Positions 36,775 to 44,668 of a stretch of 64,000 bases of DNA are shown here, one piece after another (within the stretch, counting starts at the first letter, position 1; every line of letters begins with the position of its first letter). The stretch lies in IMG/VR virus record IMGVR_UViG_3300045957_000047, positions 10,199 to 74,198 of that record, one strand, 5' to 3'. Source of the stretch: a virus. Both the position numbers and the translations under genes were made by a program. The notes beneath the pieces are model-generated. The model did not search any database. It saw nothing but the letters and a program-made list of their open reading frames with translations, and was not told the origin of the DNA.

Positions 36775-37524
36775 TCAGAATATTCTTCCGACTTTAAATC
36801 CCAACACATTATCTTCATGAAAATGTACCCCCAAAAAGGTACGGCCTTGTGCAAAACACCAGCATGCATGTAGCACTTCCTGGTACAAATCAGGACTCAG
36901 GTCGAAGTGATCTTTGACAACATTGGCAGTCACTCCAGATACTGCTCCATGGCCAGCACCATAAGACCAGTGCCCCGGTGCCGGGTACCCATTCACGGTA
37001 AAGATAGTGCCGTGAACTTGGAAGAAATCTTCAGGCCTGGGCTGTTTCCAATAATACTTGATATCAAACATCCGATCCAAAGCTTCAGGCCATCGTCTAT
37101 TCAGGTCTCCCATAAAGGCAGCCATCGAGCCATCTTTATCGCAAAACTGAATCGTTCCCGGTTTGTCTACCTTGTAAGGGACATTCAAGCGGCGCAGCTC
37201 ATCGTGTAAGAACTCCCCTAGATGCCAGGGTTTGTCCATGCTTACAGCCTGAGCCAAGGCAACAGGTCTTGGGTTTTTATTGGTACCCAACCGAAGCTTC
37301 TGGGCCAACAGTCGAGGTACTTGACCTTCAAGCTCAGACGGGTTTTGTTTGCTCAGAAAATCACCCGACCACTCACCTGCCTGAGTACGGGCAACAGTCT
37401 GCTCTACTTCTCGCAACGAATCTGCGAACTCAGGAGTCCCCGGAATTAGAGGTGCTGGCGTATTCCAACGCTTGCCTTCCCTTGGAGAGACAACATCACG
37501 AGGTGTTTGAATAAAAGCTTCCAT
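36775..37524 (-). CDS. vanadium-dependent haloperoxidase-like / PAP2 superfamily enzyme
   Basis: KYYWKQPRP (Kx6RP), PGHWSYGAGH, GRTFLGVHFHED; N-terminal PAP..GTPEFADSLREV. Confidence 0.8.
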   Translation of the reverse strand: MEAFIQTPRDVVSPREGKRWNTPAPLIPGTPEFADSLREVEQTVARTQAGEWSGDFLSKQNPSELEGQVPRLLAQKLRLGTNKNPRPVALAQAVSMDKPWHLGEFLHDELRRLNVPYKVDKPGTIQFCDKDGSMAAFMGDLNRRWPEALDRMFDIKYYWKQPRPEDFFQVHGTIFTVNGYPAPGHWSYGAGHGAVSGVTANVVKDHFDLSPDLYQEVLHACWCFAQGRTFLGVHFHEDNVLGFKVGRIF

Positions 37525-37525
37525 A

Positions 37526-38224
37526 TCAAGCAGGTCTGTTTTTAGGGTAACGAATCAGAAGTTGTTCAATATCTTCAGGCTGCCAAGATCTTAAGGCAAT
37601 AAGCTCAGGATAGAGTAAAGAGTCCCGGTTTCGAGAGTGCGACAACCCTAAAGCATGTCCGATCTCGTGATCCGTTACCGTCTCGAAGAATTGATCGTTG
37701 GTCCAAGTCTCTGAGGTATCGAAGATCATATCTCCGCACAAGGGTCCACAGGCTGACATACGATCCCCGGTACCTGGCACATACGTCACTCCCAGAGTAC
37801 CTCCCGCACCATCCAATTCAGCCCACTTAATATGGATGTCCGCATTTCGAAAACCCGTTTGTCGAAACTCAATACCACAAAGGTTCTGAACAATGGCAAA
37901 CCGTTCTTGTAAAATTATACCCGCTCTGGAAGTACCTTGATTGATAGGATTATGAGACCAGGTTACCGGCTGTCCTTGGTCTACCTTGTGCCATCGACGC
38001 TCTCGGGGCTCCGGGCAATTACAGACTGGACTCTTTGGCTCTTCATTGTTTTTGAAAAACGTAATCAGCTCATCAATCGCTTCTCGTTCTGTCTTAAAAG
38101 AAACTCCCAAAAGCATGCGGGCAATGTCGATGCTTTCAGACCACAGAAACATACGCCGAAGACGCAAAGGCGACAAGTTTTTGAAGAGAGAACGAAGATC
38201 ATCAATGTCTTTGTAGCTGTTCAT
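37526..38224 (-). CDS. matrixin (peptidase M10, MMP-like) metalloprotease
   Basis: ADIHIKW..DGAGGTLG, GDMIFDTSETWT, HEIGHALGLSHS, LLYP turn. Confidence 0.92.
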   Translation of the reverse strand: MNSYKDIDDLRSLFKNLSPLRLRRMFLWSESIDIARMLLGVSFKTEREAIDELITFFKNNEEPKSPVCNCPEPRERRWHKVDQGQPVTWSHNPINQGTSRAGIILQERFAIVQNLCGIEFRQTGFRNADIHIKWAELDGAGGTLGVTYVPGTGDRMSACGPLCGDMIFDTSETWTNDQFFETVTDHEIGHALGLSHSRNRDSLLYPELIALRSWQPEDIEQLLIRYPKNRPA

Positions 38225-42571: not shown

Positions 42572-43075
42572 TTAAGGTGACTCAGATGAGTCGGTTAGAT
42601 TATCTTCAGGGCAGCAAGGTGTATTTGGATCTACCTTGTAGCACTCGTCTTGCGTATATACCGGCAGCATTACCGTCACACAGCCACCATCATCTTTAAT
42701 CAGACTTACCAAGACAACCGGCATGCCTTGATAATGCGTCGTATCAACAGAAGACACACGACCGTCTCCAATAGGCCCCTGTTCGCCCTTGGGACCTTGC
42801 GGACCCAGTTGTCCTTCTGGACCTCTTGGACCGATTGGGCCTCTATCTCCAGGAATGCCCGCAGGTCCCATAAGACCTTGTTCTCCTTTAGGGCCTCGAT
42901 CTCCCTGAATACCTTGCTCACCACGAGGGCCTCTATCGCCACGAGGACCTGGTTCTCCTGGACATCCTTTAGGGCCTTGCTCTCCTGGAGGACCTTGGAC
43001 AACCATGGATGTAGGTGTTGGCTCTTCGCAGTGCTGATCTTTAACTGGAGCAGGCCACGGGTTAAGCATTTGCAT
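42572..43075 (-). CDS. short collagen-like protein with Cys-containing ends
   Basis: About 26 Gly-X-Y triplets; C-terminal C..C...PCCP. Confidence 0.9.
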
Positions 43076-43195
43076 TGCGAACTCTCCGGGTAAAAGGTGT
43101 TGGAGAAGTGATCAAAATAGAACGGGGAGTAAATTTCAAAAAGTTCTTCTTCTTAATCAATCTCGCTGTGGAATTACGAATCCTGTACTGTCTCC

Positions 43196-44668
43196 TCATA
43201 GCAAAGTCACCGGAGTATTGACAGGAATAGAACCACCTGGATCACACAGCTCTTGGATTGATCCGCTCACTGTAGTCACCGCCGCTACCGGAGTCAAATA
43301 CCGGTGCTCGTAGCACACTTTAATCCGACCGGTGCCAATAAAATCAGCAGAGAAAGTGCCTCCTTGAACATACTGTTCAAAGTTTTGCAGCAAATCAGGT
43401 GCCGGGTACTGCTCTACATATACAGACCCATCGGACTCTGTACCCCCCTGCCAAGCATTAGCCACTGGAGATCCCCCAACCTTTCGATTCAAGAAAACCC
43501 CTGCAGGTGCCTCTAAACGAAGAATAGGCTGGATAGGCGGATAGCAGGTCAAATCATCTTTTTGAGCAATGGGAAGACCTGTCGTATCGACCAAGATATT
43601 GAACGTGAAAGTTCCATCCAGGTCGAAGGCCACACAGGAGAAGTTACCTTCAACGCTGGCTGTGATATTACTGACCGTACCCGACTGACCTGGTGTTGAC
43701 TGCAAGACCATACGAGCTGAGTCTACAGGATGTACAAAGTCAATCTGTGTTTCCCCCGATGTTGCTTGAGGAACAGGCGTACCGGTAGGTGTGACTGTAA
43801 TTGGGTTACCGGTGTACCCGCAGCCTAAAAGAGAGACACACCCCTGAACTGTTACCAGTTCTTCTCCATTGGGCGTATTGAACAGCAGGTCCATACAACT
43901 GGGATCTACTGCCGACTGGCTTACAGAGATCAGAGAATCTCGACCGGCAGCCCCATCTGCTCCTTGTATTCCTTGTGGTCCCATCTCACCCTGAATACCT
44001 TGAGGGCCTTGAGGCCCAACATCACCTCGATCTCCTTGAGCACCTCTCTCGCCTTGCGGGCCTACTTCGCCTTGTACACCTTGTGGACCGACTTGCCCTT
44101 GCGGGCCTACCTCTCCTTGAGGACCTTGTGGACCTGTGGCACCCGTGGCTCCTGTCTGACCTCGCACACCTTGCTGGCCTTGCGCACCTGTCTCACCTCG
44201 GGGGCCTTGCTGACCTTGAATACCTTGTGGGCCTTGCGAACCTTCTGAACCTTTGACTCCATCCAGACCTCTGGGACCTGTAGGGCCTGTGTCTCCACGC
44301 TCACCCCGAGGGCCTTGGGGTCCTGTGTGACCTTGAATACCTTGAGGTCCAGGAGGGCCTTCACAACCCCGAGGTCCTTCATCTCCACGAGGGCCTACAA
44401 TACCTTGAGTACTGCATCCGCTATCGGCAGGTGGCTGAACATTCACTACAGGTGCCGGAGCAGCCGGAGCAGCCGGGGGAGTCACCATAATCACAGGAGG
44501 ATTGATATGACCGTGCCCATGACCGTGACCGTGACCATGACCATGACCATGACCATGACCGTGCCCATGACAATCCTGCTTGTGGTTGTCAGGTGGTGGC
44601 ATGATATACGCCACTTTGGGGTCACAACAATCTTCATGAGGATCGTCGCTTTTCAAATAATTAGTCAC
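43196..44668 (-). CDS. collagen-like protein with an N-terminal CC, (HG)n tract and Pro-rich linker
   Basis: About 52 Gly-X-Y triplets; globular C-terminus. Confidence 0.9.
   Translation of the reverse strand: MTNYLKSDDPHEDCCDPKVAYIMPPPDNHKQDCHGHGHGHGHGHGHGHGHGHGHINPPVIMVTPPAAPAAPAPVVNVQPPADSGCSTQGIVGPRGDEGPRGCEGPPGPQGIQGHTGPQGPRGERGDTGPTGPRGLDGVKGSEGSQGPQGIQGQQGPRGETGAQGQQGVRGQTGATGATGPQGPQGEVGPQGQVGPQGVQGEVGPQGERGAQGDRGDVGPQGPQGIQGEMGPQGIQGADGAAGRDSLISVSQSAVDPSCMDLLFNTPNGEELVTVQGCVSLLGCGYTGNPITVTPTGTPVPQATSGETQIDFVHPVDSARMVLQSTPGQSGTVSNITASVEGNFSCVAFDLDGTFTFNILVDTTGLPIAQKDDLTCYPPIQPILRLEAPAGVFLNRKVGGSPVANAWQGGTESDGSVYVEQYPAPDLLQNFEQYVQGGTFSADFIGTGRIKVCYEHRYLTPVAAVTTVSGSIQELCDPGGSIPVNTPVTLL
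44507..44569 (-). repeat. His-Gly dipeptide repeat (11 His, 10 Gly)
   Basis: CAY-GGK codon repeats over 63 nt. Confidence 0.95.

Follow-up and report, generated by a model that had tools for sequence, protein, structure and literature searches.

The head-gene operon of an uncultured, 74-kb podovirus-like sediment phage carries a co-oriented insert of ∼11.5 kb between the portal and scaffold genes. The insert encodes three collagen-like proteins and small Cys-rich ORFs, and ends in a coupled trio of genes for a GH16 glycoside hydrolase, a matrixin (M10) and a 249-residue PAP2-fold protein. The last, referred to here as mini-VBPO, appears in sequence and modeled structure to be closer to vanadium bromoperoxidases (VBPOs) than to acid phosphatases. 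We tentatively favor, at a probability of about 0.4, the reading that the insert is a lineage-specific accessory cassette of fibers and extracellular enzymes, probably virion-borne, that would open the surface matrix of the host, with the matrixin and mini-VBPO acting as a functional pair. Beyond the preliminary description of this DNA, we report the bromoperoxidase likeness, a mini-VBPO family of at least 328 clusters without GenBank phage members, its pairing and fusion with matrixins, its flanking by collagen-like genes, a syntenic relative, and a separate endolysin candidate. The window is the 64,000-nucleotide stretch analyzed here; positions refer to it, and the insert and its bordering genes are on the minus strand.

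Borders and gene content of the insert

The upstream border is the portal gene (48096–50231), assigned by PHROG 332/1216 and by tblastn (25% identity to the portals of HMO-2011-type and Rhizobium phages). The downstream border is a gene for a Q-rich, scaffold-like protein (35510–36547), which matches in position and size the 343-aa ORF that precedes the major capsid protein (MCP) gene of Rhizobium phage RHph_TM3_14A. The MCP gene itself is located at 34472–35488 (tblastn, 24% over 95% to annotated MCPs; PHROG 267). In the nearest annotated phage, the portal-scaffold interval contains no more than three tiny ORFs, and the insert is therefore read as accessory rather than core. The co-orientation and location given in the preliminary description hold, but the run is less simple than was stated: the collagen genes are interrupted by g120, g219 and g199 (40903–42556), the insert extends proximally to 48040, and the interval between the mini-VBPO and scaffold genes is taken up by a basic 53-aa ORF (36573–36734).

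The proximal part (44678–48040) consists of g98, g151, g691, a 57-aa ORF and g140, which has 8 Cys in 140 residues. We found no firm family for g98, g151, g691 or g140 in Pfam or PHROGs, and no NCBIfam match for g691 or g140; g691 has a weak Golvesin_C-like match. The ORFs between the collagens have no assigned function, although an N-terminal KF(L/I)DPxTG motif is common to g120 and g219. One base is shared at each of the g219/g199 and g199/col516 junctions, and these three genes are translationally coupled.

The collagen-like proteins are col490 (43196–44668, 490 aa; Pfam Collagen E 1.6e-26), col167 (42572–43075, 167 aa; E 6.3e-17) and col516 (39353–40903, 516 aa; E 4.4e-35), with 52, 26 and 60+15 unbroken G-X-Y triplets, respectively. 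All contain cysteines in or beside the helix: GCEG (residues 101–104) in col490, GCPG (37–40) in col167, and GCDG (92–95) and GCCG (119–122) in col516, in addition to flanking Cys. The C-terminal domain of col516 is Cys-rich (17 Cys). An (HG)10 tract is present in col490 at residues 34–54, and its C-terminal 240 residues form a globular domain of unrecognized fold, for which no match was found among PDB sequences. The PHROG tail-fiber matches of these proteins come through the G-X-Y repeats only. We envisage three trimeric fibers, stapled by cysteines and differing in their globular ends, together with several small Cys-rich proteins. In Cys content the cassette proteins are like the outer virion proteins and unlike the scaffold and giant internal proteins, which contain no Cys; incorporation into the virion is probable. 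Another fiber block of the phage, with beta-helix and lectin proteins, lies apart from the cassette at 51177–59077.

The GH16 gene (38224–39393) overlaps col516 by 41 nt with a GTG start, or by 14 nt with the ATG of the public gene call (380 aa). It shares a single base (38224) with the matrixin gene (37526–38224), which is separated by 1 nt from the mini-VBPO gene (36775–37524). The earlier account of this gene set, with its cysteine-bearing collagens followed by three tightly spaced enzymes, is thus borne out by Pfam, the G-X-Y tracts, structure and the junction coordinates. The enzymes were also described as having no signal peptides, which agrees with a crude test: the highest 12-residue Kyte-Doolittle mean within the first 45 residues is ≤1.5, leaving no N-terminal hydrophobic segment. 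No anchoring domain or PHROG structural match was recognized in any of the three.

The GH16 protein is of the laminarinase, or beta-1,3-glucanase, type (PF00722, 28.9 bits; cut-off 22). Its catalytic EIDFKE is at residues 227–232 (nt 38698–38715), E-x-D-x-x-E is invariant across 24 homologs, and the family profile matches PDB laminarinases at E 1e-27. Such a specificity is not that of a muramidase. We consider it highly improbable that the phage uses GH16 and the matrixin to lyse a host whose wall is unusual. Their location in a late operon and their missing signal peptides would suit such a role, as would a locus (L002) in which a mini-VBPO family member adjoins a CHAP lysin. However, the phage has a separate candidate lysis cassette, in which a 156-aa protein (59701–60171; PHROG "peptidase" E 3e-29, "endolysin" E 3e-17) adjoins an ORF with one TM segment. 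Because this endolysin candidate is of the peptidase type, it points to a bacterial host; the algal or animal target proposed in the preliminary description finds no support.

A compact bromoperoxidase-like protein

Mini-VBPO scores just below the Pfam cut-off for PF01569 (26.2 bits versus 27.2), yet the three PAP2 motifs are all present and invariant: K156-x6-R163-P, H185-WSYGAG-H192 and R228-x5-H234-x3-D238. The VBPO-type extra histidine (H185) and a V94-x-M-D97 segment are likewise invariant in 55 diverse family members. The HWSYGAGH stretch matches HPSYGAGH of the Acaryochloris marina VBPO chains. Ala in place of the motif-2 Ser counts against the assignment, although the A. marina VBPO has it as well. 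The structure model (pLDDT 91) aligns with VBPOs at VIA-align Z-scores of 18.4–19.7 over 232–241 of 249 residues, compared to Z-scores of 14–15 for acid phosphatases, and the family profile finds VBPOs at E-values of 6e-11 to 1e-8, compared to 2e-6 for phosphatases. These comparisons strengthen the earlier label of "vanadium-haloperoxidase-like". Haloperoxidase activity would be consistent with them, although sequence cannot separate it from phosphatase activity.

It is somewhat unlikely, in our view, that the protein is instead a soluble PAP2 phosphatase, which would join the glucanase and protease in attacking the envelope. It would dephosphorylate a surface polymer or a lipid carrier of the host, e.g. 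phosphorylated EPS, LPS, a teichoic-type polymer or undecaprenyl-PP. The motif set, complete with HxxxD, and the size are those of class A acid phosphatases, similarity to PhoN and PhoC is detectable (Foldseek TM 0.53–0.55, in addition to the VIA scores), and the CHAP lysin beside the L002 family member would fit an attack on the envelope. Moreover, apo-vanadium haloperoxidases hydrolyze phosphate esters. Nevertheless, VBPOs give clearly higher structural scores (Z about 19.7 over 239 residues) and profile E-values that are better by five orders of magnitude, and the invariant residues include H185, which is VBPO-specific, as well as V-x-M-D. Known class A acid phosphatases are also periplasmic and carry signal peptides, whereas mini-VBPO has none.

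The matrixin and its association with mini-VBPO

The matrixin (PF00413, 60.7 bits; cut-off 24) contains HEIGHALGLSH (37637–37669). Its profile matches MMP-1 in the PDB at E 3e-18, and residues 76–230 align with karilysin at a Z-score of 18.2. The Met-turn methionine is replaced by Leu, and there is no hemopexin domain. The catalytic domain is preceded by a helical region of ∼75 residues and a conserved PxCxCP motif (38006–38029), suggesting a zymogen-like organization. A cysteine switch is proposed here with caution: the CxC segment is modeled at pLDDT <50, and the N-terminal region is only partly equivalent in structure to an MMP prodomain.

None of the three enzymes has a homolog in 50,697 GenBank phages. 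Elsewhere, close homologs of both the matrixin and mini-VBPO occur on contigs of 4,513 nt and 11,767 nt, where equal contig sizes, rather than sequence, indicate that the two share a contig. In a natural fusion (P0104), a matrixin of the same type (31% identity, E 6e-16) is followed by a mini-VBPO domain, as in the gene order here. The fusion protein starts directly with the catalytic domain, and its CPC motif comes downstream of that domain, a layout that fits poorly with a simple N-terminal cysteine switch. At L002, the mini-VBPO gene has a non-orthologous metzincin as a neighbor. Because the protease and the peroxidase-like enzyme recur together in phage sequences, once fused, a joint role outside the cell is probable.

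In unrelated phages, the mini-VBPO family occupies late or structural gene blocks, for example next to a portal gene (L013) or after a capsid-sized gene (L007); some members, in Saprospiraceae MAGs, have cell-like surroundings. Giant proteins rich in Cys are common neighbors, and a GH5-domain protein lies upstream in one locus (L009). Collagen-like genes flank mini-VBPO in 4 of 13 contexts, compared to 2 of 26 control viral loci; one, with 83 triplets, is translationally coupled to the mini-VBPO gene through a 4-nt overlap (L011), and another is one gene away (L048). The remaining nine contexts have no collagen.

These neighbors bear on a self-directed "extracellular matrix", in which HOBr from mini-VBPO would covalently cross-link the phage's own collagen or Cys-rich fibers into a coat or inter-virion mesh, and the matrixin would trim the collagens at GPQG-IQG. 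Algal VBPOs and animal peroxidasin cross-link matrix polymers, and col490 contains GPQGIQG four times (residues 107, 146, 221 and 230), as noted previously, against ∼0.3 expected from X/Y composition; duplication of repeats could explain this excess. However, no collagen-IV NC1-type domain was found by Pfam, collagen is missing from most mini-VBPO contexts, and adjacency is equally expected if both genes are merely parts of a fiber module. True collagenases need a hemopexin domain to cut native triple helices, which the matrixin lacks, and GH16 would have no role. We consider this arrangement unlikely.

In a distant relative with conserved synteny (G005; portal identity only 25%), collagen and mini-VBPO are present at the same site, in the order portal, collagen plus pectate-lyase-like protein, Cys-rich proteins, mini-VBPO, Q-rich scaffold and MCP-sized ORF, with mini-VBPO directly before the scaffold gene. 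GH16 and M10 are absent from this relative, and the pectate-lyase-like protein is present instead. Among five IMG/VR phages carrying mini-VBPO, none has M10 or GH16, and two have collagen. Given these absences, the enzyme trio is not a fixed unit. The co-occurrence in relatives anticipated in the preliminary description is therefore found only in part: the recurrence, fusion and collagen flanking favor non-random neighbors, but a four-part module is not conserved. The variable site, the sporadic GH16 and M10 and the lack of GenBank phage homologs would all be expected of unlinked cargo ("morons" or AMG-like genes) gathered at a permissive insertion site and released at lysis, with no joint function or tie to the virion. 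Such an origin is nonetheless improbable in view of the matrixin/mini-VBPO fusion and repeated pairing, the single-base overlaps from g219 to GH16/M10 with the 1-nt gap that follows, and the same placement of mini-VBPO before the scaffold gene in so distant a relative.

In the favored reading of a fiber and enzyme cassette, the proteins, made without secretion signals, would most likely be extracellular in their action, whether borne by the virion, associated with it or freed at lysis. They would probably attach to the host surface or biofilm matrix and breach it through cleavage of protein and beta-1,3-glucan. In the oxic exterior, the peroxidase could convert H2O2 and halide into hypohalous acid. 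The simplest mechanism for the pair is that this acid activates the protease by oxidizing its switch cysteine(s); HOCl is established as an activator of pro-MMPs that works via their cysteine switch (PMC9405048). Oxidation or cross-linking of the Cys-rich and collagenous fibers could be a further effect of this oxidant.

Comparison with known systems

Mini-VBPO shares its fold and active-site set (K, R, (S/A)GH, R, H), as well as the bromoperoxidase-type extra His, with the VBPOs of red and brown algae and cyanobacteria (Corallina, 1QHB/1UP8/7QWI; Ascophyllum, 1QI9; A. marina, 5LPC). Identity is only 17–20%, and the solved chains have 556–666 residues, so that the putative phage enzyme, encoded in late or structural gene blocks, resembles a stripped-down core. 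The class A non-specific acid phosphatases (PhoN, PhoC and E. blattae AP) are similar in size, PAP2 core and the three motifs. Neither the extra His nor the N-terminal helix region with V-x-M-D is present in them, and they score lower.

The phage matrixin aligns with karilysin of Tannerella forsythia and the catalytic domains of animal MMP-1, -9 and -12 at Z-scores of 17–18 (rmsd about 2 Å, 25–28% identity), with HExxHxxGxxH in common, as well as an extra N-terminal region in which a conserved Cys directly precedes the R-W that opens the catalytic domain. It differs in the Met-turn, in the switch motif (PxCxCP versus PRCGxPD), and in having neither a hemopexin domain nor a signal peptide. The His ligands of the structural zinc are replaced by a conserved M-x-A-C-G-P-L-C-G insert.

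HOCl from neutrophil myeloperoxidase activates pro-MMP-7, -8 and -9 via the cysteine switch (PMC9405048 and references cited there). The phage pair likewise combines a halide-oxidizing type of peroxidase with a putatively latent, Cys-bearing matrixin; the neutrophil enzyme uses haem, whereas that of the phage would use vanadium, and the phage partners, which may be similarly coupled, are side by side or fused. Collagen-like trimers, a hypohalous-acid-type oxidase and Cys-rich partners also recall the sulfilimine cross-linking of collagen IV by peroxidasin and bromide, and BclA of the Bacillus exosporium, although the enzyme superfamily differs and Pfam detected neither an NC1 nor a BclA/C1q-type domain in the phage proteins.

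Compared to phage tailspike or fiber depolymerase modules and collagen-like tail fibers, the cassette enzymes are separate small ORFs without anchoring domains, between portal and scaffold, and include a protease and a peroxidase-like enzyme, two classes without homologs among the GenBank phage records. What the cassette shares with these modules is a late-operon site, collagen stalks and a glycanase beside the fibers, a likeness extended by G005, in which collagen is fused to a pectate-lyase-like domain.

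The portal–scaffold insertion and its gene content

The window is a 64-kb part of one contig of 74,198 bp. The sole public run containing the stretch is a sediment metagenome, which is probably the source sample; no RNA run is found among the public runs listed. A perfect 15-bp tandem repeat, GAGCTGGGATTTTTT, is located at both contig ends: 10.5 copies lie at the end of the window (63844–64000), and at the other end, which is outside the window, the repeat makes up the first ~106 bases of the genome, so that the two ends are identical over 106 bp. The repeat is either genuine, as a terminal repeat or junction of the genome, or produced by the assembly wrapping around.

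The late genes are on the minus strand, where the portal (48096–50231) and the major capsid protein (34472–35488) are distantly homologous (about 25% identity) to their counterparts in HMO-2011-type and Rhizobium podoviruses. A megablast search with 20 kb of the window gave no match among GenBank phages, and IMG/VR scans with the capsid protein, the alignment of the close PAP2-fold family (A1) and the proteins P0208, P0024 and P0047 found nothing. A metagenome scan reached only relatives of 26–28% identity. In Rhizobium phage RHph_TM3_14A, the closest annotated phage, only three tiny ORFs lie between the portal and the 343-residue pre-capsid (scaffold) gene, whereas the equivalent interval in the window spans ~11.5 kb and contains 14 ORFs. 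Thus, this cassette is a lineage-specific insertion within the head-gene operon.

The preliminary description placed a contiguous run of three collagens, a GH16, a matrixin and a haloperoxidase-like enzyme at 36775–44668. The listed genes are all present, but three non-collagen ORFs separate the collagens, and the insert in fact continues to 48040, with a 53-residue ORF in the gap ahead of the scaffold gene (35510–36547). The tight packing described for these genes is real: from g219 through the GH16 and matrixin genes, neighbors overlap or have one base in common (the col516/GH16 overlap is 14–41 nt), and the spacing from the matrixin gene to the last gene is 1 nt. Scans for sigma-70 promoters and terminators revealed no signal above shuffled expectation that would divide the cassette.

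Two of the non-collagen proteins encoded between the collagen genes, g120 (42194–42556, minus strand) and g219 (41502–42161, minus strand), have similar N-termini, (M)xKxIKF(L/I)DPxTG, with 43% identity over 30 residues and a weak E-value of 0.2; judged from this sequence likeness, the common segment may be a docking peptide. The protein g691 (691 residues; 45275–47350, minus strand) contains a Gly9 run, a weak Golvesin_C-like match below the cut-off (E 6e-4) and an unassigned C-terminal domain of ~300 residues, and has no match in PDB or PHROG. Cysteine accounts for 1.2–5.7% of residues in the capsid, adaptor-like, fibre and cassette proteins, and is missing from the scaffold and from proteins of 2,374, 378 and 235 residues (15246–24213). 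The sole tRNA is a tRNA-Cys (59181–59254).

The 249-residue PAP2-fold protein

The last gene of the cassette (36775–37524, minus strand) encodes a 249-residue PAP2-fold protein, referred to here as mini-VBPO after the vanadium bromoperoxidases (VBPOs). Its 21 close homologues (38–62% identity) are all 244–265 residues long. When 1.84 billion proteins were searched with a family profile, at least 328 clusters (50% identity) were recovered; nearly all of the 150 listed are 240–290 residues in length, and those looked up are unnamed and located on contigs of at most 78 kb. The close subfamily is absent from a scan of 185,579 prokaryote species genomes, and tblastn of the three cassette enzymes and a consensus-like family member detected no homologue in 50,697 GenBank phage records. 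PAP2 proteins in BFVD are long giant-virus ones only. Since the family is missing from cultured-phage databases, it is currently invisible to annotation.

The AlphaFold model of the protein has a pLDDT of 91. Foldseek alone does not separate bromoperoxidases from acid phosphatases. The top VIA-align matches are algal and cyanobacterial VBPOs (Z 18.4–19.7, 232–241 of 249 residues, rmsd 3.4–3.8 Å); acid phosphatases score Z 14–15 over 171–179 residues, and vanadium chloro- and iodoperoxidases about 14. A profile built from 55 diverse members matches bromoperoxidases with E-values of 6e-11 to 1e-8, compared to 2e-6 for phosphatases. Residues V94, D97, K156, R163, H185, H192, R228 and H234 are invariant across these 55 members, and the vanadium haloperoxidase (VHPO) active-site set, K156 and R163 (K-x6-RP), G191-H192, R228 and H234, is invariant in both the 22 close and the 55 diverse homologues. 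H-x6-H and R-x5-H-x3-D motifs are also present. The additional histidine of bromoperoxidases, seven residues ahead of the catalytic histidine (HPSYxSGH), corresponds to the invariant H185; HMMER aligns the HWSYGAGH segment to FAEGSPFHPSYGSGH of Corallina and HPSYGAGH of A. marina. The motif-2 serine is replaced by alanine (A190), as in the aligned A. marina VBPO chains.

Taken together, the VIA-align results, the profile and the invariant H185 indicate that a minimal VBPO-like enzyme is the best description of the protein, in agreement with its earlier designation as haloperoxidase-like. The full-length VBPO architecture is not matched, as solved VBPO chains comprise 556–666 residues, compared to only 249 here. 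A phosphatase limited to phosphate-ester hydrolysis has to be weighed against this description. The class A acid phosphatase motifs (KX6RP, PSGH and SRX5HX3D) are present, with serine changed to alanine in motif 2 and to glycine before the arginine, and the Pfam PAP2 score of 26.2 bits is below the cut-off of 27.2. However, class A acid phosphatases carry a periplasmic export signal, while the window protein has no hydrophobic N-terminus; by a crude test for an N-terminal hydrophobic segment, the absence of signal peptides noted previously stands. Based on sequence and predicted fold, we give haloperoxidase function somewhat better than even odds and regard a function confined to phosphate esters as rather unlikely.

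The partner proteins and their co-occurrence

The matrixin gene (37526–38224, minus strand) was correctly recognized in the preliminary description: PF00413 scores 60.7 bits against a cut-off of 24, and the HEIGHALGLSH sequence (HExxHxxGxxH) is invariant in homologues. The family profile detects the MMP-1 catalytic domain (E 3e-18) and karilysin (9e-15), and residues 76–230 of the model superimpose on karilysin with Z 18.2 and an rmsd of 2.1 Å. The Met-turn reads SLLYP in the window protein (Leu204, with Y-P retained); methionine is found in six of eight homologues, leucine in one and MW in one. The structural zinc and calcium sites are missing: aligned to MMP-1, the protein lacks the segment with the first His and Asp, and V and V/I stand where the later His residues would be. 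Four helices are predicted in the first ~75 residues, followed by a conserved PxCxCP in which C70 is invariant, directly ahead of the R-W at the start of the catalytic domain. The first-ranked Foldseek match is proMMP-9 (236–243 columns). VIA-align spans the N-terminal region only in part (8k5x, 175 residues), so that a putative equivalence to an MMP prodomain is borne out in part only, and the cysteine segment has a pLDDT below 50. In MMPs, a hemopexin domain is required for cutting native triple helices. The matrixin has none, so it should not cleave native triple helices.

The GH16 (38224–39393, minus strand) was also identified correctly, with a catalytic EIDFKE at residues 227–232 (E-x-D-x-x-E, invariant in 24 sequences) and a PF00722 score of 28.9 bits against a cut-off of 22. 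Its family profile matches laminarinases and endo-β-1,3-glucanases in PDB with E-values between 1e-27 and 1e-20, and it is predicted to belong to the laminarinase/β-1,3-glucanase subgroup. A role of GH16 and matrixin as phage lysins was considered and rejected because a separate endolysin-like gene is present (59701–60171, minus strand). This candidate, a 156-residue peptidase-type protein, matches PHROG 17373 (E 3e-29) and PHROG 894, “endolysin” (E 3e-17). Beside it lies an 88-residue ORF with one transmembrane segment (60175–60441, minus strand), and this candidate lysis cassette adjoins the terminase gene.

Three collagen-like proteins with cysteines in the helix had been described, and the data bear this out. 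The Pfam collagen model (PF01391) matches three cassette ORFs with E-values of 1.6e-26, 6.3e-17 and 4.4e-35; these genes, col490 (43196–44668), col167 (42572–43075) and col516 (39353–40903), all on the minus strand, encode unbroken G-X-Y tracts of 52, 26 and 60+15 triplets, and the in-helix cysteines occur as GCEG, GCPG, GCDG and GCCG. The fourfold GPQGIQG pointed out in col490 is confirmed, compared to ~0.3 expected from composition; the excess could result from repeat duplication. A perfect (His-Gly)10 tract near the N-terminus of col490 (residues 34–54; window 44507–44569) is likely a metal-binding segment (Zn, Ni or Cu). The collagen C-terminal domains have no sequence match in PDB.

It was proposed earlier that the phage builds a coat of collagens cross-linked by its own oxidase. 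The adjacency of collagen and enzyme genes is real, and such a coat is possible. However, nothing specific supports it, and the GH16 has no place in the model. Peroxidasin cross-links collagen IV through an NC1 domain with a Met/Lys cross-link pair, using a haem peroxidase, whereas no C4/NC1 or haem-peroxidase domain was found in any cassette ORF.

Whether the parts travel together was examined in readable mini-VBPO contexts from IMG/VR, one metagenome collection and MAGs, and in lists of close homologues (21 PAP2-fold, 8 matrixin and 26 GH16), where co-occurrence was inferred from equal contig sizes. PAP2-fold and matrixin homologues have contigs of equal size (4,513 and 11,767 nt), as do PAP2-fold and GH16 homologues (8,017 and 25,998 nt). 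No contig size is common to all three lists, and contigs of 64,976, 45,663 and 24,256 nt are in the PAP2-fold list only. Across five IMG/VR genomes carrying mini-VBPO, the proposed co-occurrence is seen for collagen (2/5) but not for matrixin (0/5), and GH16 was found in none of them (0/5). A collagen tract of at least nine triplets is near mini-VBPO in 4 of 13 contexts, compared to 2 of 26 viral and 4 of 73 cellular control loci. None of the 153 mini-VBPO family members examined contains a fused G-X-Y tract. A peptidase in IMG/VR record G001 was rejected as an instance of the matrixin pairing, since it belongs to a different HExxH family and is located 26 kb away from the mini-VBPO gene.

In several contexts (L011, L048, L009 and L050), the neighbors of mini-VBPO are fibre-sized proteins that are collagen-like or rich in cysteine. 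In a complete 43.5-kb phage (L011), it follows a 1,162-residue protein and a 577-residue collagen (83 triplets), overlapping the collagen gene by 4 nt. A MAG contig (L048) encodes a giant protein with 47 cysteines, a 250-residue collagen, a 117-residue ORF and mini-VBPO, and an IMG/VR phage (L009) has a GH5-domain protein (43 Cys), four more ORFs and then mini-VBPO. In two other IMG/VR phages, mini-VBPO is immediately ahead of a T7-type portal (L013), or follows terminase, portal, protease, a capsid-sized gene and a 94-residue ORF (L007). A metagenome contig (L002) carries mini-VBPO, a non-orthologous metzincin (M43/M10-like) and a CHAP lysin that matches a tail-lysozyme PHROG; a 1,699-residue protein with 117 cysteines lies further downstream. 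Full-length members are also found in MAGs assigned to Saprospiraceae (L044, L046), with cellular-looking neighbors (a Roc-COR LRR protein; an LTD plus endonuclease/exonuclease/phosphatase protein), and to Acidimicrobiales (L048, L050), where the surroundings are giant Cys-rich proteins and a collagen gene. Such occurrences in MAGs may point to hosts, or may be phage DNA caught up in the binning. On two giant-virus-sized IMG/VR contigs (L024, 582 kb; L035, 391 kb), the distance between a PAP2/VHPO-like C-terminal domain and very large collagen genes (tracts of up to 73 triplets) is ~3.5 kb, which may reflect a similar pairing in giant viruses or a coincidence.

The IMG/VR record G005 (62.9 kb; L124/L125) is a distant syntenic relative, with a portal 25% identical (E 1e-41) and homologues of the 545-residue internal protein and the 248-residue post-capsid protein. 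Its gene order is portal, a 510-residue protein that joins a short collagen tract to a pectate-lyase-like domain, Cys-rich proteins (308 and 970 residues), mini-VBPO, a Q-rich repeat and a 336-residue capsid-sized ORF; the contig is broken within the Q-rich repeat (PQQFQQPQ), which is part of the presumed scaffold gene. Another collagen gene (315 residues, 26 triplets) is directly ahead of the homologue of the 545-residue internal virion protein. The matrixin is absent. This synteny indicates that the insertion site, a collagen element and mini-VBPO just before the scaffold are old in the lineage, and comparison with the window indicates that the glycan-cutting enzyme has been exchanged.

A natural fusion, P0104 (446 residues; Logan contig of 6,047 nt), combines an N-terminal matrixin catalytic domain with a complete C-terminal mini-VBPO domain, in the same order as the window genes. 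Its matrixin domain is 31% identical to that of the window over 169 residues (E 6e-16) and contains HEIGHALGLPH and an A-C-x-x-C-G insert. The linker is proline-rich with a CPC (PPPPP...NNCPCPQ), its CxC recalling the PVCNCPEP that precedes the catalytic domain of the window matrixin. This fusion, the 1-nt spacing, the two relative contigs inferred from equal sizes and the L002 metzincin suggest that matrixin and mini-VBPO form a recurrent functional pair.

Proposed role and comparison with known systems

The cassette proteins most likely work outside the cell. This is suggested by the late operon, the lack of secretion signals, a cysteine content like that of outer virion proteins and unlike that of the Cys-free scaffold and giant internal proteins, and the late-gene sites of mini-VBPO elsewhere (L013, L007, L011, L048, L009, L050 and L002), as well as by the separate candidate endolysin and a second, divergent fibre/tailspike block on the plus strand (51177–59077). 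The latter encodes a beta-helix/pectate-lyase-like protein (53683–54861) and a Laminin_G_3 lectin-like protein (57683–59077), indicating that the phage has host-recognition proteins separate from the collagens. With extracellular action, the collagens can be read as accessory fibres or stalks and the enzymes as a toolkit for the host surface or biofilm matrix, which would address β-1,3-glucan, protein and oxidative chemistry. The algal or animal target put forward earlier is unsupported.

As the simplest link within the enzyme pair, mini-VBPO would produce hypohalous acid outside the cell, and this oxidant could oxidise the putative latch cysteine of the matrixin, so that the protease would need an oxic exterior with H2O2 to be turned on. 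HOCl is known to activate pro-MMPs through oxidation of the latch cysteine (PMC9405048). P0104 lacks the N-terminal region and is a poor fit to such activation. We assign a probability of about 0.2 to a self-contained phage oxidative switch, in which hypohalous acid from mini-VBPO unlocks a co-encoded, sometimes fused, cysteine-latched matrixin and thereby gates a virion-borne attack on the host matrix. The same oxidant may also staple phage collagen and Cys-rich fibres.

If active as a haloperoxidase, the 249-residue protein would be much smaller than any known vanadium haloperoxidase and the first encoded by a virus; it would be of interest to biocatalysis and would give sediments and biofilms a phage-borne source of reactive halogen chemistry. 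Our literature searches found no description of phage haloperoxidases, and a search that covered matrixin listed none that has matrixin and bacteriophage together. All the components fall within known enzyme superfamilies or are close to one, and modules of phage fibres and depolymerases are a known kind. New are a large family of miniature VBPO-like enzymes that lacks annotation and has many members in late or structural gene blocks of phages; the repeated pairing and fusion of this family with a matrixin that lacks the structural zinc; and a portal-proximal cassette that joins both with collagens.

A virion-associated depolymerase module of a phage would have its enzyme joined to a fibre or anchoring domain, or present in particles. 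The cassette enzymes are separate ORFs; G005, with its collagen–pectate-lyase-like protein, has such a fusion. With the proposed role, proteases and oxidants would join glycanases in the phage depolymerase repertoire. The matrixin pairing, including the natural fusion, offers a testable hypothesis of redox-gated protease activation beyond the animal immune system, where the circuit from neutrophil myeloperoxidase to pro-MMP is the parallel to the proposed phage switch.
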